Shown one piece after another: positions 8,576-41,307 of a stretch of 64,000 nucleotides of DNA. Position 1 is the first letter of the stretch, and every line of letters starts with the position of its first letter. The DNA lies in contig SCUM01000001.1 of the NCBI GenBank assembly GCA_004297215.1, positions 219,642 to 283,641 of the forward strand, given 5' to 3'. The notes beneath the pieces are model-generated. The model searched no databases. It was not told the origin of the DNA and was given only the letters and a program-made list of their open reading frames with translations. The stretch is from Patescibacteria group bacterium. GTDB lineage: Bacteria; Patescibacteriota; Patescibacteriia; UBA9934; GWF2-40-263. Made by a program: the position numbers and the translations under genes.

Positions 8576-10195
8576 TCACGCCGTCCCTTCGGCGGGCGGG
8601 ATGGCCTCCTCGGGGGCGGCCTTGCGCAATACCTTACGACGCATCCCTTCCATGAGGTCGTGAAGCTCGCGCGTGCGCAGGAGCCGACAGATCGCCACGT
8701 ACGCCGCGAGCCCGAGTCCGCCGGCGATGAATCCCTGGCCGAACACGCCGAAGAAGGTGTCAATCGAGAACAGGGAGAGCACGAGCGGCTTGGTGGCCTG
8801 CATCACGGCGGAGGCGACCATGGACGCGAGCGCGATACGGACGAGCGAGGGGAACATGCTCGCCTCGCCCAGCGTCCCCACGCGCCCGCGCAGCGTGGCC
8901 CACAGGAGCGCCGCGTTCGCGAATGACGCGAGCGAGAACGCCATGGCGAGCCCCGTGACCCCGAAGGGGCCGGTGAGCCAGAAGGCGGTCACGATTCCCA
9001 GGATGCCGGACATGATGCCGGCGACAAGCGGAGTCGCCGTGTCGTGCAGGGCGAAGAACGCGCGTGAAAGGAGATACACGAGCGATTGCGGGACGAAAGA
9101 CAACGCGAAGAACGCGAGCGTATCCGCCGTGACGATGGTCGCGGGCCAATCGAACGCCCCGGCGCCTACCACGACGCGCACCACCTGGGCGCGCACGACC
9201 AGGAACAGCGCGGTGAGCGGGACGATGAAGAACAGCATCTGGCGCACGGACGTCGCGAACGTCTCCACGAACCGATCGTCCTCCTTCCTGGCCGCGTGCT
9301 CGGCAAGCGATGGGAACGCGGCGATGGCGAAGGACACGCCCACGATCCCCACCGGGAAGAACTGGATGTTGTAGGCGAACTGGAACACGGTCACCGATCC
9401 TTCGCTGAGCGTGGACGCGATTCCCGCGAGCGCCACGAACGTGAGCTGCGCGACGGCGATCCCGATCATGCGCGGAGCGGTGAGGCGGAACACCTCGCGC
9501 GCGTCCCTGTCCAGGATCGGCCGCTTGAACGCGGGCCGCCATCCGGCGTTCCATACCCCGATCCCCTGCACGAGTGCGTGCAGCAGGGCCCCCAGCACCA
9601 CGCCCCACGCAAGCCCGATGGGCCCGATGGAGCGCGCGAGCGTCACGGCGCCGACGATGATTCCCAGGTTATAGAGCACGGGCGCGCTCGCGTAGAGCAC
9701 GAACCGCTTCATCCCCTGCAAGGCGCTCCCGAACACGATCGAAAACGAAAGGATGGCCTGCGCGAGCAACATCACGCGCATGTGTCCGGCGACCATCAGC
9801 TGCTTCTGCGGCGCGAATCCAGGCGCGACGAGCGCGGCGAGCGGGTTCGCGAGCGCGGCGGCCACGAGCGCGACCAGTCCCATCCCGACCACGACCACGG
9901 CAAGCACGTGCGAGGTGAGCCGCCACGCGCGCTCATGCGCGAGAGGATTCCCCCAGTACGAGGTGAACAACGGGATGAATCCGGCGGACAAGGACCCCAC
10001 CACGATCAGGGCGAACAGGAGGTCCGGCACCTTGAACGCCGCGTAGTACGCGTCGAGCGTGTCCCCGGCGCCGAATTCGCCGGCAAGGACGCGGTCTCGG
10101 ATGAGACCGAGGAAGCGGCTCGCGAACGAAAGGACGCCGACCACGGTGGCGGCGCCCACGATCGATTTTGACTCGGCGTTCAGGAACTTGAGCAC
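8576..10195 (-). CDS. murJ: lipid II flippase MurJ/MviN
   Basis: Polytopic membrane protein with a MurJ-like N-terminus. A GTG start is inferred at 10193-10195, abutting the upstream stop. Confidence 0.75.
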   Translation of the reverse strand: MLKFLNAESKSIVGAATVVGVLSFASRFLGLIRDRVLAGEFGAGDTLDAYYAAFKVPDLLFALIVVGSLSAGFIPLFTSYWGNPLAHERAWRLTSHVLAVVVVGMGLVALVAAALANPLAALVAPGFAPQKQLMVAGHMRVMLLAQAILSFSIVFGSALQGMKRFVLYASAPVLYNLGIIVGAVTLARSIGPIGLAWGVVLGALLHALVQGIGVWNAGWRPAFKRPILDRDAREVFRLTAPRMIGIAVAQLTFVALAGIASTLSEGSVTVFQFAYNIQFFPVGIVGVSFAIAAFPSLAEHAARKEDDRFVETFATSVRQMLFFIVPLTALFLVVRAQVVRVVVGAGAFDWPATIVTADTLAFFALSFVPQSLVYLLSRAFFALHDTATPLVAGIMSGILGIVTAFWLTGPFGVTGLAMAFSLASFANAALLWATLRGRVGTLGEASMFPSLVRIALASMVASAVMQATKPLVLSLFSIDTFFGVFGQGFIAGGLGLAAYVAICRLLRTRELHDLMEGMRRKVLRKAAPEEAIPPAEGTA

Positions 10196-10196: not shown

Positions 10197-11465
10197 TCAA
10201 TCCTCGCGGCGGACGGAGAGCCTCTTTCCCTTTCCCGTCTCCCCCCGTGGCGCTTCTGGGACCTCCTTCGGACGGATCGCCTCGGGCAGGTCGATCGCCA
10301 GCTCGTAATCCCGTTCCTTATGCACCGCGAAGGTGGTGCGCACGAGGGTGAACAGCCCGCACAGAAGCAGCACGCAGAGCAAGGCCACGGCCCCTTGCAT
10401 GATCGGATTCCCCAGGCTGAAGAACGGCACCTGGACCTGCGTCTCATCCTTGGTCTCCCGACCGTCAGGATCGGTCACGCTAAGGCGGATGCGGTAGCTG
10501 CCGGAGGCGGCGTACGCATGTTCGAGGGCGTATTGGTTTGACGTGACCCCGTCGCCGAAATCCCACTGAAACCGATAGCCGGGCAGGTCGGGAGTGAGCG
10601 CCTTCACGGCGAAACGGTTCCAATCCAGGCGATCCGTGCTGAACACGGCGGAAATCATCCCGACGTCTCCATCGGGCCGTCCTGTGTCCTCTGCCGTCGG
10701 TTCGACGGGGGGTTCCGGCGGCGGCGTTTCTGAAGTGACGGCCGCCTCGACAGGCGCCGGAGCGGATGCGACGGGGGCCGGTTTTGCCGGCGCGGGGGCC
10801 GGGGCGGGCGCGGGGGCTGGAGGCGGCTCCTTCGTCCTGGTCGGATCGGTCGGGAACACGTCGTCCTTGTCGGACACGCCGTCGCCATCGGTATCCTTCT
10901 TGAGCGGGCTGGTGCCGATTTCCCTTTCCACGTCGTCGGAAAGGCCGTCATCGTCGTCGTCCTCGTCGCAGGCGTCCCCCTGCCCGTCCTTATCCGTGTC
11001 CTTCTGGTCCGCGTTCTTCTTGGAAACGCAATTGTCCTTCTCGTCCACGACCGCGTCGTGGTCCTGGTCCGCGATCGGGGTGAACAGCCCGGTGATGGCG
11101 ACGTCATTGCCGGCGTTCGTATCCTGCGGATCGGTCCCCTTGATCTCGGCGCGGATGTTGAACGACCCCGCCGGGACGGTGAAGTCCACGAACACGTCCT
11201 CGGGCACGCCGTCGGCCCGCACCGATATCACCTGGCTGTCGCCGACCGGGATGGACCCCTGGAAGAACGACACGTATCCGCTCATGTCCTCCGTCCCCAC
11301 GTTGCGGACCTGCGCATACAACCGGATGCGATCCCCGGCCACCAGCGTCTTCACGGAGAAGGAAATGTCGCTCGATCGGATGCTCAAATCGTTCGTCGCA
11401 CAGAGGGCGGCGACGGGGGCGAGGGTCAGCGCGAGGATGATGAGGAAACGGCGGAACATAGCCAC
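10197..11465 (-). CDS. cell-surface protein: signal peptide, CARDB-like N-domain, thrombospondin type-3 Ca-binding Asp repeats, PA-rich linker, PKD domain, C-terminal TM anchor
   Basis: DxDxDGxxD repeats, a PAPAPAPAPA stretch and the WDFGDG...Y.I.L.V.D PKD signature in a 422-aa ORF. Confidence 0.7.
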   Translation of the reverse strand: MAMFRRFLIILALTLAPVAALCATNDLSIRSSDISFSVKTLVAGDRIRLYAQVRNVGTEDMSGYVSFFQGSIPVGDSQVISVRADGVPEDVFVDFTVPAGSFNIRAEIKGTDPQDTNAGNDVAITGLFTPIADQDHDAVVDEKDNCVSKKNADQKDTDKDGQGDACDEDDDDDGLSDDVEREIGTSPLKKDTDGDGVSDKDDVFPTDPTRTKEPPPAPAPAPAPAPAKPAPVASAPAPVEAAVTSETPPPEPPVEPTAEDTGRPDGDVGMISAVFSTDRLDWNRFAVKALTPDLPGYRFQWDFGDGVTSNQYALEHAYAASGSYRIRLSVTDPDGRETKDETQVQVPFFSLGNPIMQGAVALLCVLLLCGLFTLVRTTFAVHKERDYELAIDLPEAIRPKEVPEAPRGETGKGKRLSVRRED

Positions 11466-11474
11466 ATGATACCA

Positions 11475-13330: not shown

Positions 13331-14695
13331 GTGAAATTATATCAACCGATAAGCGGCAAGATCGAACGTCTCGCGCATGACGGCAGCGGGGAGATTTCGC
13401 GTGCCGAAGGAAAGCCGTATTTCATCTACAACACGATTCCTGGCGAGACGATCACGGCGCTCCCGTTCAAGCGGGCGAAGGAAGGCGTGCGCGCGGAACT
13501 TCAGTCCGTGGCCGAAGCGTCGCTGGATCGCGTCAAACCGACCTGCCCGTATGCCGGCACCTGCGGCGGATGCAAATGGCAGCACATGGGCTACGAGCGC
13601 CAGCTCGCCGAAAAGCTTGCTGGCATCCGTGACGCCTTCGAGAAGGCCGGCCTTACATGTCCCGTCTCTTCCGTGATGCCCTGCCCGGACCCGCTGTACT
13701 ACCGCAATCGGATGGATTACGTGTTCGGTCGCAACGGGGAGCTCGGGCTCAAGCAGCCCAACAAGTGGTGGGCCACGCTCGATCTGGAAACCTGTTATCT
13801 CCTTTCTGAAGAGTCCGTCGAGGTGACGAGACGCGTCCGTGAATGGACACGAAAGACGGGTCTGCCCTTCTGGGACGCGAAGACACAAACGGGATTCTTC
13901 CGCTACCTCGTCATACGCGAGGGAAAGAACACGGGCGAGCGCATGGTAATGATCGTCACCGCTCGACCTGAAGCTCCCCAAGCTCATCAAGCTCTTCAAG
14001 AACTCCCCGCTCTTCTCGACAATCTGGCGACGTCCGTCATCTGGGGCATCAACCCGCATCTGACGGACCTTTCGATCGCCCACGAGATCATCCCGCTCAA
14101 AGGCAACCCGTGGATCCACGAACGGGTGAACGGCGTCTCCTACAAGATCACGCCCAACGCCTTTTTCCAGACCAACACGGTGATGGCCGCGAAGCTGCAA
14201 GACACGGTCCGTGATTTCTGCGGCGACCTGTCGGGCAAGACGCTGCTTGATCTGTACTGCGGGTCAGGATTCTTCTCGCTGGCGCTGGCGCGCGACCCCC
14301 TCATGCTCCCCCTTTCCAAGGGGGAGGTAGCGCGAGTGATCGGCATCGAGCTGTCGGCTGAGGCTATTGAGTGTGCGAAGGAGAATGCGGTCGCGAACGG
14401 GATAACTGCCGAATATTTCGCCTCATCCGCCGAAGCGTTCGACTGGAAAGGCTACGCGCCGGACGTGGTGATCCTCGACCCACCGCGCGCCGGGATGCAC
14501 CCGAAGGTAATCGAAACGATCCTTGAGGCCGCGCCTCCAGTCCTTGTGTACGTATCCTGCAGTTATACGCGTTTTATCCAGGAATTCACGAAGCTCGGCG
14601 ATAAGTACGTCCTCGACTCCGCCACCGCCCTCGACCTATTCCCGCAGACGCCGCACGTGGAGTGCGTGTTCAAACTCGTCCGTCGTCAATCATAA
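13331..14695 (+). CDS. rlmD: 23S rRNA (uracil-5-)-methyltransferase RlmD/RumA (TRAM + 4Fe-4S + SAM MTase)
   Basis: CPYAGTCGGCKWQ cluster, DPPRAG, and the C-terminal DLFPQTPHVE motif. Confidence 0.88.
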   Translation: MKLYQPISGKIERLAHDGSGEISRAEGKPYFIYNTIPGETITALPFKRAKEGVRAELQSVAEASLDRVKPTCPYAGTCGGCKWQHMGYERQLAEKLAGIRDAFEKAGLTCPVSSVMPCPDPLYYRNRMDYVFGRNGELGLKQPNKWWATLDLETCYLLSEESVEVTRRVREWTRKTGLPFWDAKTQTGFFRYLVIREGKNTGERMVMIVTARPEAPQAHQALQELPALLDNLATSVIWGINPHLTDLSIAHEIIPLKGNPWIHERVNGVSYKITPNAFFQTNTVMAAKLQDTVRDFCGDLSGKTLLDLYCGSGFFSLALARDPLMLPLSKGEVARVIGIELSAEAIECAKENAVANGITAEYFASSAEAFDWKGYAPDVVILDPPRAGMHPKVIETILEAAPPVLVYVSCSYTRFIQEFTKLGDKYVLDSATALDLFPQTPHVECVFKLVRRQS

Positions 14696-14943
14696 ATGGA
14701 ATGGTCGCCGATCGAATGGAAAAGTGCATGATGCCGGTCGATGAGCCGAAAGATGATCCGATAACGAAAATTAATCGAGAACGACCAATATTCCTGGAGT
14801 CTGCCGGTCAATTTATGCGTCTTGAGTGTAGGCTCGAACGGGTCAACCAAGAAACGCTCGACGCGGTCTTTCACGATGGAACGAAGCGATGCCGGCAGCT
14901 TCTTCGCTTCGCGCGCGAACCTGGAGGTATAGCTGACTTCCAC
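14686..14943 (-). CDS. type II toxin, RelE/ParE superfamily
   Basis: C-terminal ..YRIIFRLIDRHHALFHSIGDHSIYD is typical of RelE/ParE. A GTG start is inferred 5 nt after the antitoxin stop. Confidence 0.7.
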   Translation of the reverse strand: MEVSYTSRFAREAKKLPASLRSIVKDRVERFLVDPFEPTLKTHKLTGRLQEYWSFSINFRYRIIFRLIDRHHALFHSIGDHSIYD

Positions 14944-14948
14944 AGTCC

Positions 14949-15167
14949 CTAGGCCCAAAGTTCATCGATCTTTTTCAGCTTCTTCGCCTTGCCTGCCGTG
15001 AATTCCTTCTCGCCTTCCTGCAGGTCAACCAGCAACCGTCCGGCCATCCAATCACGGAGCAGGTGCCTGAAAAACTCGCTTTTCGAAGCATAGTGCTTCC
15101 CCTTCACCTCCCGGTCCACGACCGCGTTCAGTTCCGCGGGCAAAGAGATGTTCACGACGTTGCGCAT
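14949..15167 (-). CDS. type II antitoxin, ribbon-helix-helix (ParD/CopG-like)
   Basis: VNISLPAELNAVVD...ASKSEFFRHLLRDW RHH signature. Lies upstream of and adjacent to the toxin. Confidence 0.7.
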   Translation of the reverse strand: MRNVVNISLPAELNAVVDREVKGKHYASKSEFFRHLLRDWMAGRLLVDLQEGEKEFTAGKAKKLKKIDELWA

Positions 15168-15175
15168 ATCCAAGG

Positions 15176-15196
15176 CTGTAATAATATGTATTACAG
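15176..15196. promoter_or_regulatory. perfect 21-bp palindrome CTGTAATAATATGTATTACAG just upstream of the antitoxin start; candidate TA autoregulatory operator / -10 region
   Basis: Inverted repeat seen directly. Confidence 0.45.
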
Positions 15197-15197
15197 T

Positions 15198-15293
15198 ATG
15201 TCATCGGGCAGGCTCCGTCAAATCGCCGCCACCCTCGACCTGTTCCCGAACACGCCGCATGTAGAGGGCGCGTTCAAGCTGGTGAGGAAATAA
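15198..15293 (+). pseudogene. degenerate duplicate of the rlmD 3' end (encodes ..IAATLDLFPNTPHVEGAFKLVRK*)
   Basis: About 80% nucleotide identity to 14618-14695, and protein-level identity to the RlmD C-terminus. Confidence 0.6.
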
Positions 15294-15336
15294 AAAAACA
15301 GCTCCCGAGTCGGGAAGCCGTTGAGACAGTCGGACG

Positions 15337-16161
15337 TCAAAGAGGTGATTCAACCCCATCGCGAACCCGAATTACTTTGCCACCAGGCAAATGGCAGAAG
15401 GCAGGGTAGACGTCGAAGGACCAATGTATTTGGCCGTTCTCCTCGTCATGCTCGAATTCCACTGTCGGAAACGTGTCTCCTACGTCCCCATAAGGACCGT
15501 AAATCTTTCCATCAGCCACTATAGTCACGTGAATGCCTTCTCTCAAAAAGATAAAGGTGTGACCGGCAAATGTCCGTACCGATTTAATGTGATTGTCCGG
15601 ATGGAACGGCCCAATCCTCCAGCCGTCTCCGATAAGGAATAATTCATTCGGCTCGAGGATCGCAGCGATGATGCCGTATTCTTGATACAACGTGATCGAA
15701 TCGCGTCTGAACGGTTCGCTCAATGTCCCGTTCGTGATGAGGAACGATTGTCCGCCGCGTTGCACAATGAATCCGTTGCCCCACCAACCGTCTGGCAGGA
15801 CTTTCTCGACATCGAACGGCACGCCATTCACTTCCCCCGTCACCACCGTGGCGACGGCCCCATCGGGATACGCCTTCAGGAAGCGGTCTCCGTCGGCAAG
15901 CAGCAGATATTCGTCATTCTCCTTTTTGGACGGCCTGCCACGTGATTTCGCAAGGATGCCGAGCATCTCATCAGGCATCTCGAGGAGCGCCTGAATATGC
16001 GCCGGCGTGATTCGGCCAGCGTTGAACTGCTGGAGCAGTTCGATGATCTGGTTTGGAATGGACGCTTTCGCCACGATGCACCTCTTTACCGTTCGGAAGC
16101 GCGCAGGTGTTCCCACGTTCGCTTCTCCGGGCATGGCATGACCACACGACGGATGTCGCAC
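15337..16161 (-). CDS. hypothetical protein (start uncertain), lower-GC (~50%) gene adjacent to TA cassette
   Basis: 274-aa ORF with no recognisable family. Confidence 0.5.
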   Translation of the reverse strand: MRHPSCGHAMPGEANVGTPARFRTVKRCIVAKASIPNQIIELLQQFNAGRITPAHIQALLEMPDEMLGILAKSRGRPSKKENDEYLLLADGDRFLKAYPDGAVATVVTGEVNGVPFDVEKVLPDGWWGNGFIVQRGGQSFLITNGTLSEPFRRDSITLYQEYGIIAAILEPNELFLIGDGWRIGPFHPDNHIKSVRTFAGHTFIFLREGIHVTIVADGKIYGPYGDVGDTFPTVEFEHDEENGQIHWSFDVYPAFCHLPGGKVIRVRDGVESPL

Positions 16162-16235: not shown

Positions 16236-17105
16236 ATGGCTGAAACGCAGAAGAAATCCGGGTTCGCCGTGATGGTGGGGCGCTCCAACGTGGGGAAATC
16301 CACGATCTTGAACGAACTCGTTGGCTCCAAGGTGGCCATCACCACGCCAAAGCCGCAAACCACCCGCCTGCCCGTTCAGGGCATCGTTTCGCGTCCGGAA
16401 GGACAGGTGGTGTTCGTGGACACGCCGGGGATCATCCAGAAGTCCCGCGATTCCCTCACCCAGCGGATGACCAAGTCGGCAAAGGACTCGCTGCGCGACA
16501 TCGACGTGGTGCTGTATGTCGTGGACCCCACCCGTCACATCGGGGACGAGGAAAAGGCCGTGATGCGCATGCTCGAGGACGTGACGAAACCCAAGTTCCT
16601 CGTGATCAACAAGATGGACCTGCCCGAGGGCGAACGGGAATTCCAGGACTATTACGACGACCTTCAGGGGCTCTACGACGGGACGTTCGAGGTATCCGGC
16701 AAGACCGGCAAGGGCCTTGATGCGCTGCTCGCGGCGGTGTTCGAGAAGCTGCCGGAGGGCGAACCGTATTATCCGGAAGGCCAGCTCACCAACATGCCGA
16801 GCGAGCGCTGGGTGGCCGAGCTCATCCGCGAGAAGCTGTTCCTGCGCCTACGCGAGGAAGTGCCTTACTCCACGCACGTGGAGGTGGAAGAGCTGGAGCG
16901 CCGCGAGGACGGGACGATGTACGTCAAGGCGACCGTCTACACCACGGAGGAGCGCTACAAGCGCATGATCATCGGCGCGCGCGGCCAGGGCATCAAGGAG
17001 ATCGGAAGCAGCACGCGGCATGAGCTGGAGGCCGTGATGCAGACGAAAGTGTTCCTGGACCTGAACGTGGACACGGACCCGCATTGGGTGGACAGGATGG
17101 AGTGA
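16236..17105 (+). CDS. era: GTPase Era
   Basis: GRSNVGKSTILN G1 motif, DTPG, NKMD, and a KH domain at the C-terminus. Confidence 0.92.
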   Translation: MAETQKKSGFAVMVGRSNVGKSTILNELVGSKVAITTPKPQTTRLPVQGIVSRPEGQVVFVDTPGIIQKSRDSLTQRMTKSAKDSLRDIDVVLYVVDPTRHIGDEEKAVMRMLEDVTKPKFLVINKMDLPEGEREFQDYYDDLQGLYDGTFEVSGKTGKGLDALLAAVFEKLPEGEPYYPEGQLTNMPSERWVAELIREKLFLRLREEVPYSTHVEVEELERREDGTMYVKATVYTTEERYKRMIIGARGQGIKEIGSSTRHELEAVMQTKVFLDLNVDTDPHWVDRME

Positions 17106-17222
17106 GCGAAAACTTGAAACGTGAAAACTTGAAATCTTGAAAGGAAACGTGAAAACTTTTGAAAAGGCGAAACGGATAAACCGCTTCGTCTTTTTTCATC
17201 GTTTCAAAGTTTCAAGTTTTTC
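17106..17222. terminator. AT-rich intergenic palindromic repeat structure (GAAAACTTGAAA x3 direct + inverted copy) between convergent era and pilD; probable bidirectional terminator
   Basis: Direct and inverted repeats seen in sequence. Confidence 0.5.
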
Positions 17223-18012
17223 ACCCAAAAAACCCCATGTACCACGTGAGGATCGGTCGTCCGAACAGCAGCATCACGAGCGTTGCCAGGGTAAGGAACG
17301 TGCCGAACGGGACCTGCGTCTGCCAGGCCGCCTTCTCGCGCTGGATGAGGAAGAGCCCCACGACGGCACCCAGGGCATAGGCGATGAACAGGGCGCCCAG
17401 CGCGTCCTTCCAGCCGAGCATGAATCCCATGAGCACGCCCAGGCGGATGTCCCCGCCGCCGATCCAGCGGCCTTTGGAGAACAGGTATTGGGCCAGGAAG
17501 AATCCGCCCAGGATCAGCCCTCCCGACAGGAGATCGTACGGATGGAAGGTGCCAACCCACACGTTGAAGGCGAACGCGATCGCCATGGCCGGGACCGTGA
17601 ACCGATCCAGGATGAGGTAATACTTGAGGTCGTAGACGAACAGGAGCATCAGGGAGGTGACGAACGCCAGGTCGCGCAGGAAGAACGCCACCGACTGCAT
17701 CGGGGAAAGCTCCGGCGGCAAGCCGAATCCGTACATGAACCGGAGGTAAAAGACGAAAAACAGCAGCCCGGTGCCGAATTCCACCAGCGGGTACTGCCAG
17801 GAGATGCGCTCGCCGCAGCTTCGGCACTTGCCGCGCAGCGCGATGAAGCTCAAGACCGGGATCAGGTCCTTTGGGGCGATTTGCGCCTGGCAGGACAGGC
17901 AACGCGAACGCCCGCCAAAAGAACTCCCGGCGTTCGTGCGCAGGATGACCACGTTGAGGAAGCTCCCGACCGAGAGCCCGATGACGAAGGCCAAGAGCGC
18001 GCCCATCATCAT
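17221..18012 (-). CDS. pilD: type IV prepilin peptidase (A24 family)
   Basis: MMMGALLAFVIGLSVGSFLNVVILR, a Cys pair and polytopic TMs. Internal start abuts the upstream stop. Confidence 0.8.
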   Translation of the reverse strand: MMMGALLAFVIGLSVGSFLNVVILRTNAGSSFGGRSRCLSCQAQIAPKDLIPVLSFIALRGKCRSCGERISWQYPLVEFGTGLLFFVFYLRFMYGFGLPPELSPMQSVAFFLRDLAFVTSLMLLFVYDLKYYLILDRFTVPAMAIAFAFNVWVGTFHPYDLLSGGLILGGFFLAQYLFSKGRWIGGGDIRLGVLMGFMLGWKDALGALFIAYALGAVVGLFLIQREKAAWQTQVPFGTFLTLATLVMLLFGRPILTWYMGFFG

Positions 18013-18014: not shown

Positions 18015-18506
18015 CTAGAGGCGGCAGGCGCCGGCCGAGAGCCCGTCCGGACTCGCGCAGTTGAGGCCCTTCGCGAGGCCGGCCTCGGGCCAATTCCCTT
18101 CGAGCTCGAATTGGATGCGGTACGTGGAATCTTCCCGGATGGAGAGGTAGCACAACGCATCCGCCTCGCCGGCGCAGGAGGCCAGGCCATCGAGCCCCTT
18201 GACGACCGTGGCCGGGACCCTGCGCAGGAACGTGGCGCCGGCGCAGGAGGCGGCGAACCCCTCTTCGCCCAAACATCCGGTCTCAAGCACGCCCAGCGCG
18301 ATCCCTTCCCCTCCCGGCGGGTAGGCGTTCTTCTGGTTGAAGTAATTCTCCATGGCCGCCTGGACCTGGCGAACGTTAGAAAGACGCACGGCGTCCCGCG
18401 CCTGCGCGCGAGCCGCGTTCACCTCGACCGCGGCGAACGCGCCGATGAGGCCGATCGCCAGCAGGCCGGCCAGGATCTGGATGATCTTGCGCTGTCGTTC
18501 CTCCAT
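18015..18506 (-). CDS. pilin-like protein with non-canonical N-terminus (no G/FxxxE prepilin motif) and C-terminal Cys pairs
   Basis: Hydrophobic N-helix followed by ARDAVRLSNVRQVQAAMENYF...YP, a pilin-like signature. Start at the internal Met. Confidence 0.45.
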   Translation of the reverse strand: MEERQRKIIQILAGLLAIGLIGAFAAVEVNAARAQARDAVRLSNVRQVQAAMENYFNQKNAYPPGGEGIALGVLETGCLGEEGFAASCAGATFLRRVPATVVKGLDGLASCAGEADALCYLSIREDSTYRIQFELEGNWPEAGLAKGLNCASPDGLSAGACRL

Positions 18507-18527
18507 AGGGTCTGGATGAAGAATGTG

Positions 18528-18581
18528 GGATGAAGGATGTAGGATTTCTTTGCGTATCCTACATCCTACATCCTTCATCCT
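18528..18581. promoter_or_regulatory. 19-bp perfect inverted repeat GGGATGAAGGATGTAGGAT / ATCCTACATCCTTCATCC(C) with heptamer duplications, between response-regulator stop and pilin start
   Basis: Seen directly. It overlaps the last codons of the response regulator. Confidence 0.45.
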
Positions 18582-18969
18582 ACATTCTAACCCGTTCCTT
18601 TACGAGCCGCTCCACGTGCGCGCGCGTTTCCGTCGGCGTGACATGGCCCTTGAGCAGGTATCCGTCCGTGCCGCAGGCAAGCGTCTCGCGCACATGCTCG
18701 CGGTCCCCGCGCGCCGTGAGCGCGACCACGACGATGCCGGAGCTGGTCGGGTCTTCCTTGAGCGCGCGGACGAGCGCGAACGCCTCCGGCACCGTATCGG
18801 CGTCGAGGAGCATCGCGTCCGGAGCCTTCTTCGCGACGAGCTTGCGCGCCTCCTTCGCGTCCGGCGCGAGGCGCGCGACCCACCGGGCCGCCTCGAACCG
18901 CCGCGCGTAGATGCCGGCGAACGTCGCGTCCGGATCAACGATGAGCAGCTGGCGCTTGCGGGCAGGCAC
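18580..18969 (-). CDS. stand-alone response regulator receiver (CheY-like) protein
   Basis: 129 aa with LLIVDPD, MLLDAD, VVALTARGD and the GTDGYLLKG receiver motifs. Confidence 0.7.
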   Translation of the reverse strand: MPARKRQLLIVDPDATFAGIYARRFEAARWVARLAPDAKEARKLVAKKAPDAMLLDADTVPEAFALVRALKEDPTSSGIVVVALTARGDREHVRETLACGTDGYLLKGHVTPTETRAHVERLVKERVRM

Positions 18970-18970
18970 A

Positions 18971-20083
18971 CTACTCGATGTCGCGCATCGCGAGCCCGAT
19001 CGACACGGCCATGCGCGGTCCGATCTCGTCGAGCACCGGACGCAGGTCCGCCGGGTAGGACACCCGCGCCCACGGGTCGCCGCGATAGACGTTCAGGTTG
19101 AGCGAGGCGGAGAGGAACTCGGGCACGCCCGGGAGATGCGCGCTGCCGCCGGTCACCACCACCTTTTCCACCTTCTTGAACTCCGTGAGCTCCATGCGCG
19201 CGTACAGCTGGAGCGCGTACTGGATCTCGTGGAGGATGGGTCCCATCGCAGCCTCCACCGCGGGCGGGAGCTTGCCTCCGGGCATGGCCGGCTGGTTCCC
19301 CAGGTCGGTCTTGATCTGTTCGGCCTCCGATTCGGGCACCGACATCTGCTCCATGATCTTCTTCGTGACGGACGATCCTCCCACGTTGATGGACCTGGTG
19401 AGGAACGGGATGCCTTTCTCGACCACGGTGATGTTCGTGCGCCCGAACCCGATGTCGAGGATGAGCACCGCGCTCTTGTCCTTGCCGATCAGGCTGCGGA
19501 TGAGGGCGAAGGACTCGGTATCGATCGCCTGGAGCTCGAGCTTGGCCGTGCGGAAGATCTCGATGTACTTCTGCACGAGCGTCTTGGCCGCGCCCGTGAC
19601 GAGCACGCGCACGTAGTCGGACGGCTTGCCAGCCGGAACCGTTTGTTCTTTTCCTGCGGCCTTCGTGCCTGAGGCCTTCCCCGCCTGCAGAGGATCGATG
19701 AACGTCGAATAGGTGATCATCTCCGAGATGGGAAGCGGGGTGAGCTTGGCCACCTGCGCGTCGATGAGCGGTTTCATCTCCTTCTCGTCCTTGCGCCGCG
19801 GCACCGCCACGATCGTCGAAAAGATCGAGGACAGCGGGAGCGCCGCCATGGCCTTGTTCGTCTTCACCCCGGCGCGCTTGCACAGTTCGGCAAGCGTCTC
19901 CCCGGCGCCCTTGACGTCCTCGAACGGCGAAACCACGGCCTCTCCCGGCTTGCGCTCGGAATAGCCGTAGGTCAGCAGCGTGGCGCGGCCCTTCTCGTTG
20001 GAAAGCTCCACCACCTTGACCCCCCCGGCGCCGACGTCCACGCCGAGGAAACTTTGCTTTTTCGGAGCGCCGAACAGGGCCAT
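18971..20083 (-). CDS. pilM: type IV pilus assembly protein PilM (actin-like ATPase)
   Basis: SFLGVDVGAGGVKVVELS N-terminus and the actin fold ~350 aa. Confidence 0.75.
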   Translation of the reverse strand: MALFGAPKKQSFLGVDVGAGGVKVVELSNEKGRATLLTYGYSERKPGEAVVSPFEDVKGAGETLAELCKRAGVKTNKAMAALPLSSIFSTIVAVPRRKDEKEMKPLIDAQVAKLTPLPISEMITYSTFIDPLQAGKASGTKAAGKEQTVPAGKPSDYVRVLVTGAAKTLVQKYIEIFRTAKLELQAIDTESFALIRSLIGKDKSAVLILDIGFGRTNITVVEKGIPFLTRSINVGGSSVTKKIMEQMSVPESEAEQIKTDLGNQPAMPGGKLPPAVEAAMGPILHEIQYALQLYARMELTEFKKVEKVVVTGGSAHLPGVPEFLSASLNLNVYRGDPWARVSYPADLRPVLDEIGPRMAVSIGLAMRDIE

Positions 20084-20107: not shown

Positions 20108-20509
20108 TCAGGTGTGCGCGTCCAGACACGCATTCACCGCCGCATCCGCCTCCGTGTTCTGCTCGCGTCGCACGTGCTTGAACGTGACGCGCTTGAAGCC
20201 GAGGGCGAGGTTGTGCACCTGCATGAACAGCTTCGCGAGGTCCGGATTCTTCACCTTATACTCGCCCTTGAGCTGCTTCACCGCCAGTTCCGAATCCATG
20301 CGCATCTCCACTTCCGTCGCCCCATGCCGCTTGGCCGCTTCGAGCGCGATGACGATGCCGGTGTACTCCGCCACGTTGTTGGTGGCGCGACCCAGGAACC
20401 GCGAGAGCGTCTCGAGCACTTCGCCGTCCGCGGTCTTCACGACCGCGCCGCCGCACGCCGGCCCCGGGTTGCCGCGCGATCCTCCGTCGGAATAGGTGAT
20501 GAGTTTCAT
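20108..20509 (-). CDS. rnhA: ribonuclease HI
   Basis: MKLITYSDGGSRGNPG, with DEDD catalytic residues in the pattern. Confidence 0.85.
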   Translation of the reverse strand: MKLITYSDGGSRGNPGPACGGAVVKTADGEVLETLSRFLGRATNNVAEYTGIVIALEAAKRHGATEVEMRMDSELAVKQLKGEYKVKNPDLAKLFMQVHNLALGFKRVTFKHVRREQNTEADAAVNACLDAHT

Positions 20510-20523: not shown

Positions 20524-20588
20524 AGGCCTCAGACGTGAAGGCGTTAAGGGTAATCCCTGAGGCCTTGTCCGCCTAAGGCCTTCACGCC
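20524..20588. repeat. full-length copy of dispersed palindromic REP/MITE-like element (L-arm units ..GTGAAGGCGTTAAGG / centre / R-arm CCTGAGGCCTTGTCCGCCTAAGGCCTTCACGCC)
   Basis: Shares the core GGCCTTGTCCGCCTGAGGCC with at least 12 other loci. It supplies the recJ stop codon. Confidence 0.8.
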
Positions 20589-22396
20589 TTCAAGTCAACG
20601 ATCCTCAACTGCAATTCCCGGTTCCCCTTCCACTCGTTCACGCCTAATTCGAAGGCGACGTCCAATGCCTGCCCCGGTTTCAGTCGCTTCACCCATTCCC
20701 CGAACCGGAACCCGATGAACTTGGCTATTCTCCCACCCTTGCCGCGCGCCGACAACCGGAGATGCTTCCCGTCCGCGCCGACCGTGTCAAAGGCGACGAC
20801 GGTCGCGCGCGAGGCGAACAATGGACGCGGGTTCTTCTCGCCGAACGGTTCGAGTTTCTGCACGGCCTCGAGCAACGCCCAATCCACGTCCTCGAGGTCG
20901 AGGTCGGCGTCCACGCGCAGGATCGGACGCAAGTCATCCGGCTTGATGTGCGCGTCGGCGTGCTTATGGAGCGATTCGACGAGGAACGCGAACCGTTCTT
21001 CCCCGCTCACCGAAAACCCGCACGCCTGCGGATGCCCGCCGAACCGATCGAGGTGTTCCTTGCACGCGTGAAGCGCCGCGGTCACGTCGAACCCGCCGAA
21101 GCTACGGCCGGAGCCGACATAACGCTCGCCATCTTTTCCGACCGCATACACCGGACGACAAAAATCGTTCACCAACTTGCCCGCGACGAGCCCGACGAGT
21201 CCCGGCGACCAGCCGGCGCTTGAGACGATGACGCACTTCGTGTCACCGGGATCGCCGACGAGACGCTTCGCCTCCTGATACATCGCCTCGGACGCCTTCT
21301 GACGATCTGCGTTCACTTCGTTGAGACGCATGGCAAGCTCGGCCGCTCGCGTCGGGTCTTCTTCGAGCAACAACTCGACCGCGCCACGTGCGTGCTCCAT
21401 GCGTCCAGCTGCATTCAGCCGCGGTCCGATCTGAAAACCTATGGTCACGGTGTCGAGCTCCCCGCCCTTGTTACCAGCCGCCTCGAGGAGTTTTTGGATG
21501 CCCACGCGCCGCGTCTTGTTGAGCACTTTGAGCCCATACGTCTCGAGCACGCGGTTCTCCCCCATGAGCGGCATCACGTCCGTGACGGTCGCGATGGCGA
21601 CGAGGTCGAGCAGCCATTTCTCATACCCTTCCGCGAAGCTCGCACCACGTTTAGATGCCTCATGGATAAGCGCGCTCGCCAACTTAAAGGCGACTCCTGT
21701 CCCGCACAGCGTCTTGTTCGGATACGTCTCCCCTGGCACTTGCGGGTGCAGCAGGATGGCCGCGTCCGGGAGCGCGTCGGGCACGGCATGGTGATCGCAC
21801 ACGATGGTGTCCACGCCCAGCTCGCGGCCCCGGTCGATCGCGTCCTTGTTGGAAATGCCGCAGTCCACGGTGATGACCAGCTTTGTCCCTTCGGCCGCAA
21901 GCTTTTCCATGGTCGCGACGGACAGGCCGTAGCCTTCCTTCTCGCGGTGAGGGATATAGGAGGAGAGCTGAAAGGCGGTAGAGGCCCGCAGGCCCGCAGG
22001 GTTTTCCCTGAAAGCCTTGTCCGCCTGGGGGCCTTGTCCGCCTAACGATCGACAGATGTCGCACAGCGTGGACATGAGCACGGTCGTGCCGCACACGCCG
22101 TCCGCGTCGTAGTCGCCGTGGACCGTGATGCGCTCGCCGGCCTCAAGCGCCGCGAAGACGCGCTCAACGGCCGCTTGCATGTTGCGAAACATCGAGGGCG
22201 AGTGCGCATCACGACTCCAATCCGGCCCCAGGAACACGTCCATTTCGGCTTGGGTCCTCACTCCCCTGTTCCACAGCAACCGTAATGCCACCGGATGCAC
22301 GTCCGGGAATGCCGCCCGAGCCTCGTCGGGCACGGCCGGATCGGTTATCCACACGCGCTCTTTCATGGCACGAGGATAGCACAAACGGACCCGCAC
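20582..22396 (-). CDS. recJ: single-stranded-DNA-specific exonuclease RecJ
   Basis: DHH motifs (HGDYDADG) and DHHA1. Contains a ~26-codon in-frame REP insertion (..GGQGPQADKAFRENPAGLRAS..). Confidence 0.88.
   Translation of the reverse strand: MRVRLCYPRAMKERVWITDPAVPDEARAAFPDVHPVALRLLWNRGVRTQAEMDVFLGPDWSRDAHSPSMFRNMQAAVERVFAALEAGERITVHGDYDADGVCGTTVLMSTLCDICRSLGGQGPQADKAFRENPAGLRASTAFQLSSYIPHREKEGYGLSVATMEKLAAEGTKLVITVDCGISNKDAIDRGRELGVDTIVCDHHAVPDALPDAAILLHPQVPGETYPNKTLCGTGVAFKLASALIHEASKRGASFAEGYEKWLLDLVAIATVTDVMPLMGENRVLETYGLKVLNKTRRVGIQKLLEAAGNKGGELDTVTIGFQIGPRLNAAGRMEHARGAVELLLEEDPTRAAELAMRLNEVNADRQKASEAMYQEAKRLVGDPGDTKCVIVSSAGWSPGLVGLVAGKLVNDFCRPVYAVGKDGERYVGSGRSFGGFDVTAALHACKEHLDRFGGHPQACGFSVSGEERFAFLVESLHKHADAHIKPDDLRPILRVDADLDLEDVDWALLEAVQKLEPFGEKNPRPLFASRATVVAFDTVGADGKHLRLSARGKGGRIAKFIGFRFGEWVKRLKPGQALDVAFELGVNEWKGNRELQLRIVDLKA
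21966..22043. repeat. REP-like element inserted in-frame inside recJ CDS
   Basis: GCCTTGTCCGCCTGGGGGCCTTGTCCGCCT plus an AGGCCCGCAGGCCCGCAGG arm. It interrupts the conserved DHH region. Confidence 0.75.
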
Positions 22397-22408: not shown

Positions 22409-24202
22409 CTACCCCCGTTTCAGCACGCTCATGTACGCCTCGCTCGGGATGTCGACGGAGCCGCGGCCGAACTCGGCCATCTTGGCCTTGCCCTTCTTCT
22501 GCTTCTCGAGGAGCTTGCGCTTGCGCGTGACGTCGCCGCCGTAGAGCTTGGCCGTGACGTCCTTGCGCATGGCGCTGATGCGCTCGCTTGCCACGATCTT
22601 GCCGCCCACCGCGGCCTGCAGCTTGATCACGAAGTTCTGCGCCGGGATGCTTTCCTTGAGGCTCTCGAGCATGCGGCGGCCCACGCGGTCGGCCTCGTCG
22701 CGATAGACGAGCGACGCGAACGCTTCGACCGGTTCTTCCGCGACCAGGATGTCCAATTTCACGACGTCCGCGACGCGAAAATCCATCAGCTCGTAGTTGA
22801 GGCTGGCGTACCCGCTGGTGACCGACTTGAGCTTGTCGTAGAAATCCACGATCACCATGGCGAGCGGGATCTCGTAGTGGAGGATGACCCGGTTCTCGGA
22901 CAGGTATTCGGTGTCCTTGTAGATGCCCCGGCGATCCGTGACCAGCTGCATCACGCCGCCGATGTGGTCGCTGGGCGTGACGATGTCGGCCTTCACCCAC
23001 GGCTCCTCGATCTCCTTGATGTGCGACATGTCGGGAAGCTCCGAGGGGGACTTCACGACGAGCGTCTCCCCGGACATCTTGAGCACCTTGTACGCCACGC
23101 TCGGCACGGTCACCACGAGCTCGATGTCGAACTCGCGCGACAGGCGCTCCTTCACGATCTCCATGTGCAGCATGCCCAGCAACCCGCAGCGGAACCCGTA
23201 GCCGAGCGCGGGCGAATGCTCGGGCTCGTAGGTGAGCGAGGCGTCGTTGAGCTTGAGCCGCTCCATCCCCTCGCGCAATCGCGCGAAGTCGAACCCTTCC
23301 TTGGGGAACAGCCCGGCGAACACCATGGGCCGCACCTCGCGGTACCCGGAGAGCGCCTCGGTGGCCGGCACCTTGAGGCTCGTGACCGTGTCGCCCACGC
23401 GGCAGGCCGCGATGTCCTTGAACCCGGTCACGACGTAGCCGATCTGCCCGCATTCGAGCTCGGGCATGGCGTCGAAGCGGCCCGGGCGCAGCGCGCCCAC
23501 GTCGAGCAGCTCGCCGTCGCTGCGGCTGGCCATCATCAGGATCCTGTCGCCCTTCTTGAACGCGCCGTCCACCACGCGCACGTACGCCACCACGCCCTTG
23601 TAGTCGTCGTAGGCCGAGTCGAACACGAGCGCGCGGGCGCTCGCCGCGGGGTTCCCTTCCGGCGCAGGCACGCGCTCCACGATGGCGTCGAGAAGTTCAG
23701 GAACGCCCTGCCCCGTCTTTCCGCTCACCAGCAGCACGTCTTCCTCCTTGCATCCGATGAGCTGCACCAGCTCGGCCATGCGCCGTGGCACGTCGGCGGC
23801 GGGCATGTCGATCTTGTTGAGCGCCGGGATGATCACGAGGTCTTCGGCGAGCGCGAGGTACAGGTTGCCGATGGTCTGCGCCTGCACGCCCTGCGTGGCG
23901 TCCACGAGCAGCACCGCGCCTTCCACGGCCGCGAGCGAGCGCGACACCTCGTAGTTGAAATCGACGTGGCCAGGGGTGTCGATCAGGTTGAGGATATGGC
24001 CCTTGTGGGTCATGCGCGCCGGAGCGAGCTTGATGGTGATCCCGCGTTCGCGCTCGAGGTCCATGGAGTCGAGCATCTGGTCCTTCATCTGACGCTTGTC
24101 GACCGTCCCGGTGACCTCAAGCAGCCGGTCGGAAAGCGTGGACTTCCCGTGGTCGATGTGCGCGATGATGCAGAAGTTGCGGATCTTGGACTGGGGAACC
24201 AT
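22409..24202 (-). CDS. lepA: elongation factor 4 (LepA)
   Basis: IRNFCIIAHIDHGKST G-domain and the LepA C-terminal domain. Confidence 0.92.
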   Translation of the reverse strand: MVPQSKIRNFCIIAHIDHGKSTLSDRLLEVTGTVDKRQMKDQMLDSMDLERERGITIKLAPARMTHKGHILNLIDTPGHVDFNYEVSRSLAAVEGAVLLVDATQGVQAQTIGNLYLALAEDLVIIPALNKIDMPAADVPRRMAELVQLIGCKEEDVLLVSGKTGQGVPELLDAIVERVPAPEGNPAASARALVFDSAYDDYKGVVAYVRVVDGAFKKGDRILMMASRSDGELLDVGALRPGRFDAMPELECGQIGYVVTGFKDIAACRVGDTVTSLKVPATEALSGYREVRPMVFAGLFPKEGFDFARLREGMERLKLNDASLTYEPEHSPALGYGFRCGLLGMLHMEIVKERLSREFDIELVVTVPSVAYKVLKMSGETLVVKSPSELPDMSHIKEIEEPWVKADIVTPSDHIGGVMQLVTDRRGIYKDTEYLSENRVILHYEIPLAMVIVDFYDKLKSVTSGYASLNYELMDFRVADVVKLDILVAEEPVEAFASLVYRDEADRVGRRMLESLKESIPAQNFVIKLQAAVGGKIVASERISAMRKDVTAKLYGGDVTRKRKLLEKQKKGKAKMAEFGRGSVDIPSEAYMSVLKRG

Positions 24203-24221
24203 ACGTGCGCGCATCCTAATA

Positions 24222-27439: not shown

Positions 27440-27835
27440 CTATCGGGCCGTCTCCGCCGGAAGTTCGCACCCGACCTTGGCGCCCAGCGCTTCGAACGAC
27501 TGCTCGCCGGAAAGGCGCGTGCCGTCGGGGAACGTCCAGGTGGGATATCCTTCGACCCCGTCGTCCTTGCACTTTTGCGACATGGCCTTGGTGCCGCCCG
27601 GGGAACATTCGACGTAGTCCACCTTGGAGAAGGCGTTACCGAACAGCGCCTTCTGCTTGGTGCAGTGCGGACACCACCAGGCGCCGTACATCTTCGCCCC
27701 TTTCTCGGTGAGGCACTGCGCGAAGGCGGTCGCGGGAGACGGGACCTGCCCGTTCTTCACCACGAAGCCGATGAGACCGATGGCGACCACGGCCGCGACG
27801 AGCATGAGGATCTGGGAGGACGTGACCTTCGCCAT
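27440..27835 (-). CDS. membrane-anchored thioredoxin-like thiol-disulfide oxidoreductase (VKOR partner, DsbA-like role)
   Basis: N-terminal TM and the WCPHC motif. Confidence 0.75.
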   Translation of the reverse strand: MAKVTSSQILMLVAAVVAIGLIGFVVKNGQVPSPATAFAQCLTEKGAKMYGAWWCPHCTKQKALFGNAFSKVDYVECSPGGTKAMSQKCKDDGVEGYPTWTFPDGTRLSGEQSFEALGAKVGCELPAETAR

Positions 27836-27910
27836 ACGGGGATTGACCCGGCAGCTGCCAGGGTTGAGGAATCAGGGAGTTTCGGCTAGTATACGCGGAT
27901 TCCGAAACGT

Positions 27911-33987: not shown

Positions 33988-34605
33988 TCAGCTCTTCATC
34001 ACGTTCTCCATCGCCGCCCACACGGATTTCGCCCCTTTCGGGACCAGCACCGCCGCCTCGTCGCCGGGCTCGGCGCGATAGAAGGTGATGCTCGCGGTAA
34101 GTACCTTGTACACCGCCCCGGGCGTGCTCACAAGGTAGGAATCCGTGCTGGGGTCGAACGCCACTTTTCCCGTGACGCGCCGGCGCTCGACCGGGCTGAT
34201 CTGCTTGAAAAGGTGCGCGCCGTCCGCGCGGATGCACAGCTTCAGCACGTCCCCTTCCACCAGGCGGGATTTGGACGCGTAATTGGGCGGCACCCGATAG
34301 CTGCGGCCGTCGTTGCCCACCATGGCGCACCCGTCGAACACCCCTTCCACGACCTGTCCGCCGCCTTGGAGCGCCTCTGCGGCCTGCCGCTTCCCCGCGA
34401 CAAGCGAGGCGATGTGCCGGTGCGCCAGTGCCCCGTCGCCGCCCTCAAGCAGGGCGAGCGCGTTGCCGATCGCCTCGTGCGCCTGATGGAGGATCCGCGC
34501 CGCCAGTTCCGTCCGGCCTTGCGCACAGAGCGCCGGCGCCGACGGATCGCCCGCCTCGTCGGGTTCGGGCTCGAAAGACGTGAAATCAGGCTGGTCGGTT
34601 GGCAT
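33988..34605 (-). CDS. hypothetical protein (205 aa) between dnaX and the TM ATPase
   Basis: ORF tightly packed in the operon (2-nt and 18-nt gaps). Confidence 0.55.
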   Translation of the reverse strand: MPTDQPDFTSFEPEPDEAGDPSAPALCAQGRTELAARILHQAHEAIGNALALLEGGDGALAHRHIASLVAGKRQAAEALQGGGQVVEGVFDGCAMVGNDGRSYRVPPNYASKSRLVEGDVLKLCIRADGAHLFKQISPVERRRVTGKVAFDPSTDSYLVSTPGAVYKVLTASITFYRAEPGDEAAVLVPKGAKSVWAAMENVMKS

Positions 34606-34623
34606 ATTGGTGTTTGTCTGGAT

Positions 34624-37176: not shown

Positions 37177-37178
37177 GG

Positions 37179-37709
37179 TTAGACGGCGTTGCCGCGCTCA
37201 CGCTTCTCCGCTTCCGCGAGCAAGAGGAGCTTGTCGGTCTTGATCTTGGCTTCCTGCTCCAAGTAGAACCTGTTCGCCCGGTCGGAGAGGAGCTTCAGCC
37301 AGTCGCGGATGGCGTCGAACACCTTCTTCACGTTCACCTTGGTCTGCATGAGCAGCTCCCGCACCGAACGCGCGGTCTCTTCGCCCTGCTTCTTGAAATG
37401 CGCGCGCTCCTTGGGAGAAAGCTGCTTGTAGATTTCTTCAAGCCCTTCGGAAAGGACCGCTTCGACCTCCGCCGTCATCCGGTCCTTGGGGGCCTGGATG
37501 ACCCGTTGCACCATCTGCACGGGGGTCGGTGCCGCGACAGGTTCGGTCGCAGCCTGCTCTGTCGTTGGCTCCTCAAGCTCTTCAAACTCCTCTTTCCCTT
37601 CCGGCGCAGCTTCAACCCGCCTGCCCGCCGTAGCTTCAGCGGAGGCGGGTTCAACTCGAATCTCCCCGCCGACCGGGGCAAGACCTTTCTTTTCGGGCTC
37701 CAAGGCCAT
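37179..37709 (-). CDS. hypothetical protein (176 aa; acidic N-half, helical C-half)
   Basis: C-terminal portion of ORF 37179..38105, from the internal Met that follows the cysS stop and a REP copy. Confidence 0.45.
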   Translation of the reverse strand: MALEPEKKGLAPVGGEIRVEPASAEATAGRRVEAAPEGKEEFEELEEPTTEQAATEPVAAPTPVQMVQRVIQAPKDRMTAEVEAVLSEGLEEIYKQLSPKERAHFKKQGEETARSVRELLMQTKVNVKKVFDAIRDWLKLLSDRANRFYLEQEAKIKTDKLLLLAEAEKRERGNAV

Positions 37710-40670: not shown

Positions 40671-40680
40671 AAGAGAAGGG

Positions 40681-41307
40681 TTAATTTTCGTAAGATGGAT
40701 GATCTTCGTCCCGGTCGCGTCCGTCCATGCCGCCGCGACGGTGCGAGTCGATGAGCTTCTTCGCCTCTTCCTTGAAACGCTTGCGCTTTTCCTCGCGGGT
40801 GCCGTCGCCGTCGCGGACGCGCTTCACGAGGTCGCGGACCTCCGGGCCGAGCCGGGACTTGGACTCCTCACGCAACTTTACACGCTCGCGCACGGATTCG
40901 TAACGCTCCCGTTCGTCCGCCGCCCGCTCGATGAGGCGCTCCTGCCGCCCGTTTGCGATCCGCTCCGCTTCCTTGAGGCGTTTTTCCAGCATCTTCGCGT
41001 AAAACGCTGCGGCGCGTTCGGGGCTCGTCTTCGCGATCGCCGCCTCGGCCGTCTCGATCCCCTGCTTCATCGCGAACAACGGGTGCCCTTCCACCACGTC
41101 CGGGCTCTCATAGGCGAACGCGCCGGTGCCGGAGACGAGCAACGCGAACGCGCACAGCCCCACCGCCACCGGACGAAGGCGCATCGCGGGACGCGCCACG
41201 AACCCGCCCTCGGCGGCGAGCCGCGCATACAACGCGACACGAAACGCTCGGCGCGGGGAAAGGCGCCGGCGCATCCGGTTGAGGTTGAAACGTGTCAGCC
41301 AATCCAT
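40681..41307 (-). CDS. putative anti-sigma factor (single-pass membrane protein downstream of ECF sigma)
   Basis: Gene order sigma then anti-sigma. TM segment, then a charged helical C-terminus. Confidence 0.45.
   Translation of the reverse strand: MDWLTRFNLNRMRRRLSPRRAFRVALYARLAAEGGFVARPAMRLRPVAVGLCAFALLVSGTGAFAYESPDVVEGHPLFAMKQGIETAEAAIAKTSPERAAAFYAKMLEKRLKEAERIANGRQERLIERAADERERYESVRERVKLREESKSRLGPEVRDLVKRVRDGDGTREEKRKRFKEEAKKLIDSHRRGGMDGRDRDEDHPSYEN

Follow-up and report, generated by a model that had tools for sequence, protein, structure and literature searches.

A pilin-like protein without a class III signal peptide, encoded between pilM and pilD in a Patescibacteria group bacterium

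The gene described here encodes a 163-amino acid (aa) pilin-like protein and is located in a 64-kb stretch of contig SCUM01000001.1 from a Patescibacteria group bacterium (the window; all positions are those of the whole stretch). It is part of a tight gene set on the minus strand, together with pilM, a stand-alone receiver gene and the prepilin peptidase gene pilD. It belongs to an orthologous pilin-fold family that repeatedly sheds the class III signal peptide, yet is under selection and genetically linked with PilM and PilD. In bacteria this peptide is regarded as a defining, near-invariant mark of pilins, and pilin-finding tools rely on it. Host attachment and DNA uptake by the ultrasmall bacteria of the candidate phyla radiation (CPR) are believed to depend centrally on type IV pili.

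The window protein is a member of the pilin superfamily by homology and fold, yet it fails each test for a class III signal peptide. Twenty-five homologues were retrieved from 5.8 billion proteins, the named ones all from Patescibacteria or Candidatus Uhrbacteria. The six cysteines of the window protein (C78, C88, C111, C119, C150 and C161) are invariant across these 25 sequences. The homologue alignment likewise shows an invariant α1C motif, AR..ARDAVRLS.VRQ.Q..E..F, which is present in the window protein as ARDAVRLSNVRQ.Q..E.YF. In the predicted structure, residues 2-59 form a helix with a predicted local distance difference test (pLDDT) score above 90; a ~20-residue hydrophobic α1N leads into a long α1 helix packed on a β-sheet, i.e. 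the lollipop fold. Textbook prepilin leaders do occur among the homologues (P0002, P0006, P0007, P0008 and P0019). P0002, at 75% identity, carries the leader MSTRG↓FTTIELL (the arrow separates positions -1 and +1) and scores 18.5 with TIGR02532 against a cut-off of 16.3, while P0008 passes both N-terminal models (TIGR02532, 22.7 vs 16.3; PF07963, 27.4 vs 21.2).

In the alignment with canonical orthologues, position -1 of the window protein is Gln, +1 is Arg and +5 is Gln, with Arg-Lys occupying +1/+2. This alignment bears out the absence of Gly-1, Phe+1 and Glu+5 reported in a preliminary description of the sequence. The pilin motif and the six cysteines are likewise present, although six residues, and not three as had been written, separate the Y of the motif from YP. 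No match was obtained with TIGR02532 at E ≤ 1 or with PF07963 at E ≤ 10; Pfam assigns no family to the protein, and NCBIfam returned a sub-threshold GspG match only (16.3 bits). Nor does an alternative start provide a Gly-Phe site, as the longer 187-aa open reading frame (ORF) adds translated hairpin only (see below), and a six-frame regular-expression scan across all 64 kb for prepilin motifs of the type [GA][FMILVYW][TSA]..E gave zero hits. A canonical leader, which the preliminary description had named as one of two observations that would speak against it, was thus found neither at other starts nor in any frame. The cautious suggestion that the protein may not be a PilD substrate is consistent with the literature, where the Gly that ends the leader is described as “absolutely critical” for processing (PMC4471445). 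According to the same source, Glu5 is not needed for cleavage and is required for homopolymer assembly (PMC4471445). A PilN-like role was considered on the basis of the “RINLIE” N-termini of some relatives (cf. “INLLP” of PilN) and rejected as a coincidental resemblance, since the string falls within the membrane helix and lacks conservation.

Outside the leader, the pilin-like protein is as well conserved as PilM and PilD and is under purifying selection. Across ~20 genomes, identity to the window copy was 40-57% for the pilin-like protein, 42-66% for PilM, 36-54% for PilD, and 24-47% for the receiver. The ratio of non-synonymous to synonymous substitution rates (dN/dS) of the pilin-like gene was 0.16-0.32 versus its three nearest orthologues, and 0.38 between two Gly-less orthologues at a dS of 0.42. 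An identical protein (P0001, 100% identity) was recovered from an independent assembly. Poor conservation of pilins among the Patescibacteria has been reported (PMC11623550); relative to CPR pilins, the globular head of the present family is unusually conserved. With regard to the six cysteines, it should be noted that the window also encodes a VKOR homologue (PF07884, 8e-22) and a thioredoxin-like protein that is anchored in the membrane and carries a CPHC motif, which correspond to a thiol-disulfide oxidoreductase/VKOR pair reported as enriched in CPR. Judged from sequence, these two proteins would plausibly oxidise the six cysteines of the pilin-like protein.

Loss of Gly-1 across the family

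The family set comprises 39 distinct sequences, drawn from the protein search and from 20 genome loci, with the register set from the RDAVRL anchor. The tree was built from residues +9 onward and is therefore independent of the leader motif. Gly-1 is kept in about half of the 39 sequences, and on this N-terminus-free tree it was replaced at least 7 independent times. The largest Gly-less group is a clade of 11 sequences with the N-terminus MTDQKR↓[LFI]..IE (the KR clade); the window protein and P0003-P0005 share MEE(R/Q)Q↓(R/K)K..(Q/E/R). Elsewhere, position -1 is Lys in L021, Thr in L022 (with Gln at +5, like the window protein), Pro in L023, Asn in P0020, Ser in P0023 and Ala in P0024, whereas L016 begins at +1 with an in-frame stop immediately upstream. 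At least two basic residues precede the hydrophobic stretch in all Gly-less variants, which fits a preserved anchor with the N-terminus inside (N-in).

When 1.84 billion cluster representatives (50%-identity library) were searched exhaustively with the family profile (35,864 at E ≤ 1e-3), a similar picture emerged on a larger scale. Among representatives with the RDAVRLS signature, Gly-1 was present in 12 of 21, as compared to 106 of 116 ordinary CPR pilins (~91%; Fisher p 3e-4). Glu+5 was present in 109 of the 116 ordinary CPR pilins recovered by the family profile. Among the non-canonical members of these 21 and of the other top-scoring representatives were further leaderless forms, such as MTQIE, MTRNE, MNRRE and MTRKE. 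Leader loss is a trait of a six-cysteine family of Uhrbacteria-like Patescibacteria and not a one-off.

Two observations on the Gly-less members are added here. In the leaderless ones (L016 at about 10010-10020, P0031, P0037, P0038 and P0040) Met is placed exactly at pilin position +1; their starts include MNRLY..., MTQIE..., MTRNE... and MTRKE..., and the in-frame stop of L016 is two codons upstream. Read at face value, such proteins would be “pre-matured” pilin N-termini for which no PilD is needed. In the KR clade (loci L002, L003, L006, L007, L009 and L010), which has no adjacent pilD, each of the 11 sequences retains Glu+5 at the exact spacing. Retention of Glu+5 under these circumstances suggests that the residue is selected for something other than PilD-dependent maturation.

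The pilM locus and its hairpin

On the minus strand, lepA-recJ-rnhA is followed by pilM, the receiver gene, the pilin-like gene and pilD (Table 1). The pilM product was identified by PF11104 (PilM_2, 6e-34; 117.9 bits vs a cut-off of 27) and is above the curated cut-off of TIGR01175 (140.6 bits vs 133). The receiver protein matches PF00072 (1.4e-9; 38.5 bits vs a cut-off of 30.2) and has no output domain. The pilD product matches PF06750 (2.4e-29) and PF01478 (4.4e-12), without an NCBIfam match. Its Cys pairs (CLSC...CRSC) and the motifs YDLK..ILD and GGGDIR, which we take to be the catalytic Asp motifs of A24 peptidases, are kept in the window and in 17 relatives. By these conserved motifs the window PilD looks functional.

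Table 1 Features of the window discussed in the text
Feature	Position	Strand	Remarks
lepA	22409-24214	-	further upstream of pilM
recJ	20582-22396	-	further upstream of pilM
rnhA	20108-20509	-	upstream neighbour; PF13456 and PF00075
pilM	18971-20083	-	actin-like ATPase-fold protein of type IV pilus assembly; 370 aa, N-terminus MALFGAPKK
receiver (REC) gene	18580-18969	-	stand-alone; 129 aa, GTG start 1 nucleotide (nt) past the pilM stop
inverted repeat (hairpin)	18508-18593	-	GGATG(A/T)AG heptamers; between receiver and pilin-like genes
pilin-like gene	18015-18506	-	163 aa; true start MEERQRKIIQIL; protein begins MEERQRKIIQILAGLLAIGLIGAFAAV
pilD	17221-18012	-	prepilin peptidase/N-methyltransferase (peptidase A24); 263 aa, ATG 2 nt past the pilin-like stop
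VKOR homologue	47020-47445	+	PF07884
thioredoxin-like protein	27440-27871	-	membrane-anchored, CPHC motif
coupling protein-like gene	34624-37197	-	857 aa
unannotated ORF	33988-34623		211 aa
low-GC patch	14686-16161	-	between rumA-like gene and era
rumA-like gene	13331-14695		
era	16236-17105		
toxin-like ORF	14686-14958		RelE/ParE type
antitoxin-like ORF	14949-15173		ribbon-helix-helix
ORF without Pfam match	15337-16161		274 aa
predicted surface protein	10197-11474	-	425 aa
DUF5666 predicted surface protein	39207-40823	-	538 aa

The four gene identities proposed in the preliminary description, including the pilin nature of the third gene, are upheld by the hidden Markov model matches and by orthologues with real leaders. 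The same applies to the position after lepA-recJ-rnhA on the minus strand, with pilD located just outside the segment then quoted. That the genes abut or overlap is correct for pilM/receiver (1 nt) and pilin-like/pilD (2 nt); a gap of 73 nt, occupied by the hairpin, lies between the receiver gene and the pilin-like gene. The receiver had been described as a CheY-like regulator, and the window copy does keep the acidic pocket (D-P-D), the phospho-acceptor Asp (LLD), Thr (LTA) and Lys (LLK). Across the family, by contrast, Thr and Lys are often lost, the phospho-acceptor Asp is replaced by Glu or Gln in L004 and L016, and the gene is missing from L020 and L021. The term “compact type IV pilus operon” was an overstatement, as neither an assembly ATPase nor a platform protein, PilN/PilO or a further pilin was found in the window. 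Neither Pfam on 20 further window ORFs nor motif scans revealed pilB, pilC, pilT, pilN or pilO. The Pfam matches comprised alaS, murJ, cysS, uvrC, a P-type ATPase, nrdD, VKOR and others, and the GspE Walker-A expression matched a UvrB-like protein only.

The arrangement pilM-REC-pilin-like(-pilD) is syntenic in ~20 independent genomes, which makes the module more than a chance association, and the order (lepA-recJ-)rnhA-pilM-REC-pilin-like-pilD was found again in most related loci. In the KR clade the adjoining pilD is gone and ligA comes next. A simple coupling of Gly-1 loss with loss of the adjacent pilD was considered and dismissed: it is true for the KR clade but fails for the window clade and L021-L023. 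Within ±10 kb of the ~20 related loci there was no GspE-type ATPase or second prepilin, these two motifs being the only ones checked. The genes after pilM in the relatives are REC, the pilin-like gene and pilD or ligA, and none of the window ORFs scanned gave a PilN or PilO match. The four genes are a conserved accessory module rather than a self-sufficient pilus operon, given that no ATPase, PilC, PilN/PilO or second prepilin was seen in the window. Complete pilus gene sets are usual in CPR genomes (PMC6744442).

The two arms of the inverted repeat between the receiver and pilin-like genes are 96% complementary over 26 nt, or 79% over 38 nt. The window has no second such repeat, and as RNA it folds with -47 kcal/mol (z -6.5). 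The receiver stop codon is located inside the 5' arm and the 3' arm finishes 1 nt ahead of the pilin-like ATG, so that the hairpin covers the entire translation-initiation region of this gene. It may couple translation of the pilin-like gene to termination at the receiver ORF. The longest ORF (187 aa, from ATG 18578) merely gains 24 codons of inverted-repeat read-through (MKDVGCRIRKEILHPSSHILHPDP); ATG 18506 is the real start, because the relatives show it. Rfam gave no family at threshold for the hairpin, just generic miRNA-like hairpin noise; a search for sigma-70-like promoters came up empty, and the number of terminator-like sites did not exceed chance. The hairpin is kept in L026 (553-625; -31.9 kcal/mol, z -4.6) and missing from L027, L028 and the majority of relatives, whose spacers measure about 10-15 nt. 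As L026 is the closest relative and the only one to share it, the hairpin has the appearance of a recent insertion.

At its 5' end the gene has a mosaic character. In the core-sequence tree the sister of the window protein is P0002, a protein with a canonical leader whose gene shares the upstream hairpin. The first ~8 codons of the window gene (ATGGAGGAACGACAGCGCAAGATC), on the other hand, are near-identical to their counterparts in the Gly-less, hairpin-free P0003-P0005 genes (5' ends compared: window 18482-18506, L026 628-660, L027 5401-5430, L028 280-310). This implies one or more exchanges or reversions of the 5' end within this group of close relatives, by recombination or gene conversion at the pilin-like leader.

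Some further features of the window are noted for completeness. The 857-aa protein has weak matches to coupling proteins of the TrwB/VirD4/TraG type (PF10412, 1e-8; PF02534, 1.8e-7; PF12696), i.e. it is a type IV secretion/conjugation-like ATPase; the 211-aa ORF adjoins it. The guanine-cytosine (GC) content dips to 0.557 at 14001-16000. The low-GC patch in this region contains overlapping toxin-like and antitoxin-like ORFs, recognised by eye only, and the 274-aa ORF. L028 has a different, 382-aa gene at this position, so that the patch seems to be a variable islet. The 425-aa protein combines CARDB/Ig-like, thrombospondin type 3 and PKD domains with a C-terminal hydrophobic segment; together with the DUF5666 protein it is a possible cell-surface or adhesion factor.

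Explanations for the altered N-terminus

The explanation that we favour, at what we judge to be about an even chance, is that the 163-aa product would be an ex-pilin: no longer a PilD-processed fibre subunit, but a membrane-retained accessory of the pilus machinery. In its favour are the recurrent and independent disappearance of the cleavage site, natively leaderless genes included, a head domain conserved like a part of the machinery, and the fixed pilM synteny. The observations that it builds on are the pilin homology and fold, the absent hallmark residues, the repeated leader loss, purifying selection, the pilM/pilD synteny, and an intact PilD; non-cleavage, membrane retention and a machinery role are what we infer. 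The ~20-residue hydrophobic α1N would insert the protein N-in/C-out, with the basic residues R4, R6 and K7 remaining in the cytoplasm. With no Gly at -1, PilD would leave the protein uncut and, given its uncut, charged N-terminus and Gln in place of Glu at +5, it would be neither extracted from the membrane nor polymerised. It would then remain bitopic, exposing a disulfide-stabilised pilin head on the outer face, and could serve as a fixed accessory at the pilus base together with the co-inherited, cytoplasmic PilM and receiver-like protein. A possible role is to dock or nucleate true pilins via α1-α1 contacts. The PilD of the gene set presumably acts on canonical pilins whose genes are located elsewhere in the genome. 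We count the largest Gly-less clade, KR↓[LFI]..E without an adjacent pilD, in favour of this explanation.

Several points weigh against it. The assumption of non-cleavage is based on rules from Proteobacteria, which may not be those of the CPR PilD. Roughly half of the family members still have a cleavable G↓[FIMV]..E leader, and most Gly-less members retain Glu+5 at exact spacing, which suggests that a pilin-like use of the N-terminus persists in many lineages. In the window itself pilD is tightly coupled, starting 2 nt past the pilin-like stop. Moreover, the cytoplasmic tail of about 5-7 residues is short for a PilN-like contact with PilM.

Some of these points would be accommodated if the protein were a working minor pilin, with a CPR PilD of relaxed or shifted specificity, or another protease, trimming the leader. 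The protein could then enter the fibre in low copy, e.g. at the tip, where Glu+5 is unneeded, as for tip pilins of the GspK/PilX type. An intact pilD directly adjoins the gene; even without Gly-1, the class III peptide retains its exact register, usually along with Glu+5; the leaderless variants, with M at +1 and E at +5, resemble a mature pilin N-terminus; and mixed fibres can take up Glu5 mutants (PMC4471445). However, the residues found at -1 (Q, R, K, T, P and N) are untolerated by characterised prepilin peptidases (PMC4471445), and the Arg-Lys pair at +1/+2 of the window protein represents charges that would have to be dragged through the membrane on extraction. A big Gly-less clade does without an adjacent pilD, and the known Glu5-less tip pilins keep Gly-1. 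We therefore regard the minor-pilin explanation as unlikely. A further possibility is cleavage by signal peptidase I, e.g. after AVEVNA, of what is then an ordinary Sec signal peptide. The product would be a soluble, disulfide-bonded extracellular protein with no link to pilus assembly. By eye, the N-terminus does offer a positive n-region, a hydrophobic core and small, A-x-A-like residues (V-N-A↓A) near 25-31, and the VKOR and CPHC proteins encoded in the window are suited to extracytoplasmic disulfides. This appears quite improbable, as the ~20-residue hydrophobic stretch is predicted to run unbroken into helix 2-59, a typical pilin α1 anchor, the putative cut region and α1C (ARDAVRLSNVRQ) are the best-conserved part of the family, and the pilM/pilD synteny is conserved.

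Least credible, in our view, is that the gene is a decaying pilin remnant, or that its odd N-terminus is an assembly or annotation artefact tied to the hairpin insertion. The loss of the hallmark residues, the 73-nt hairpin right at the start codon, and a mosaic-looking N-terminus (core nearest P0002, first ~8 codons as in P0003-P0005) could be read in this manner. Against this, the frame is open and intact with all six cysteines conserved, dN/dS is low (about 0.16-0.39), and the identical P0001 stems from a separate assembly. The MEE(R/Q)Q(R/K)K start recurs in three more assemblies without the hairpin, and Gly-less forms are found throughout one clade of at least 11 sequences.

The ex-pilin explanation can be extended to the family as a whole, although we consider the extension doubtful. 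In that case, the family would be caught in the middle of a change from PilD-processed filament subunit to fixed, unprocessed or leaderless membrane part, a bacterial counterpart of ArlF/ArlG (see below). In Uhrbacteria-like CPR it would form a distinct pilus-base module, e.g. an anchor or terminator pairing with pilin α1, with a PilN/PilO-less PilM and a pseudo-receiver. More generally, motif-based searches undercount pilin-fold proteins, and pilin folds appear reusable as non-filament, membrane-anchored parts. The natural variants (canonical, Gly-less and leaderless, some 75% identical) provide material for studying the requirements of PilD and the non-cleavage role of Glu+5.

Comparison with known systems

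The closest known proteins are the type IV pilins and pseudopilins of Patescibacteria (COG2165, PulG-like; TIGR02532/PF07963), which are homologous to the window protein and adopt the same lollipop fold. They share with it the hydrophobic α1N with Gly14 and the ARDA.R.S motif in α1C. Whereas G↓FT.IE leaders exist among the orthologues, the window protein has Q-1/R+1/Q+5 and fails both N-terminal models. Its gene is also fixed between pilM/REC and pilD beside housekeeping genes, and not in a pilB/pilC/pilin locus as for Patescibacteria pilins. The receiver can be compared to CheY-like regulators of the PilG/PilH type, as it is likewise stand-alone, encoded with pilus genes, and equipped with the phosphorylation residues. 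Unlike in the PilG/PilH setting, there is no Chp-type kinase or other chemosensory gene nearby, and the receiver of the family is often degenerate and sometimes absent.

Minor pilins of the tip that lack Glu5 (GspK and PilX-type) keep Gly-1 and a hydrophobic residue at +1 and are substrates of PilD/GspO. The window protein differs from GspK (PDB 3ci0_K) and the PilX-type proteins in having no cleavage site and Arg-Lys at +1/+2. Predicted PilD signals are likewise absent from PilX1 and PilX2 of the Saccharibacteria strain TM7x (PMC11623550). These are large tip adhesins with an extra C-terminal β-jelly roll or β-propeller, whereas the window protein is a minimal pilin of 163 aa, and the two are likened here by description only. 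In archaea, ArlF and ArlG are homologues of filament subunits that became fixed machine parts after loss of the class III signal (PMC10117864). The archaellum stator formed by ArlF/ArlG (FlaF/FlaG) thus exemplifies the evolutionary route proposed for the window protein. The comparison is one of analogy only: the archaellin β-sandwich has no sequence or fold relation to the α/β roll of bacterial pilins, and it serves another machine in another domain of life.

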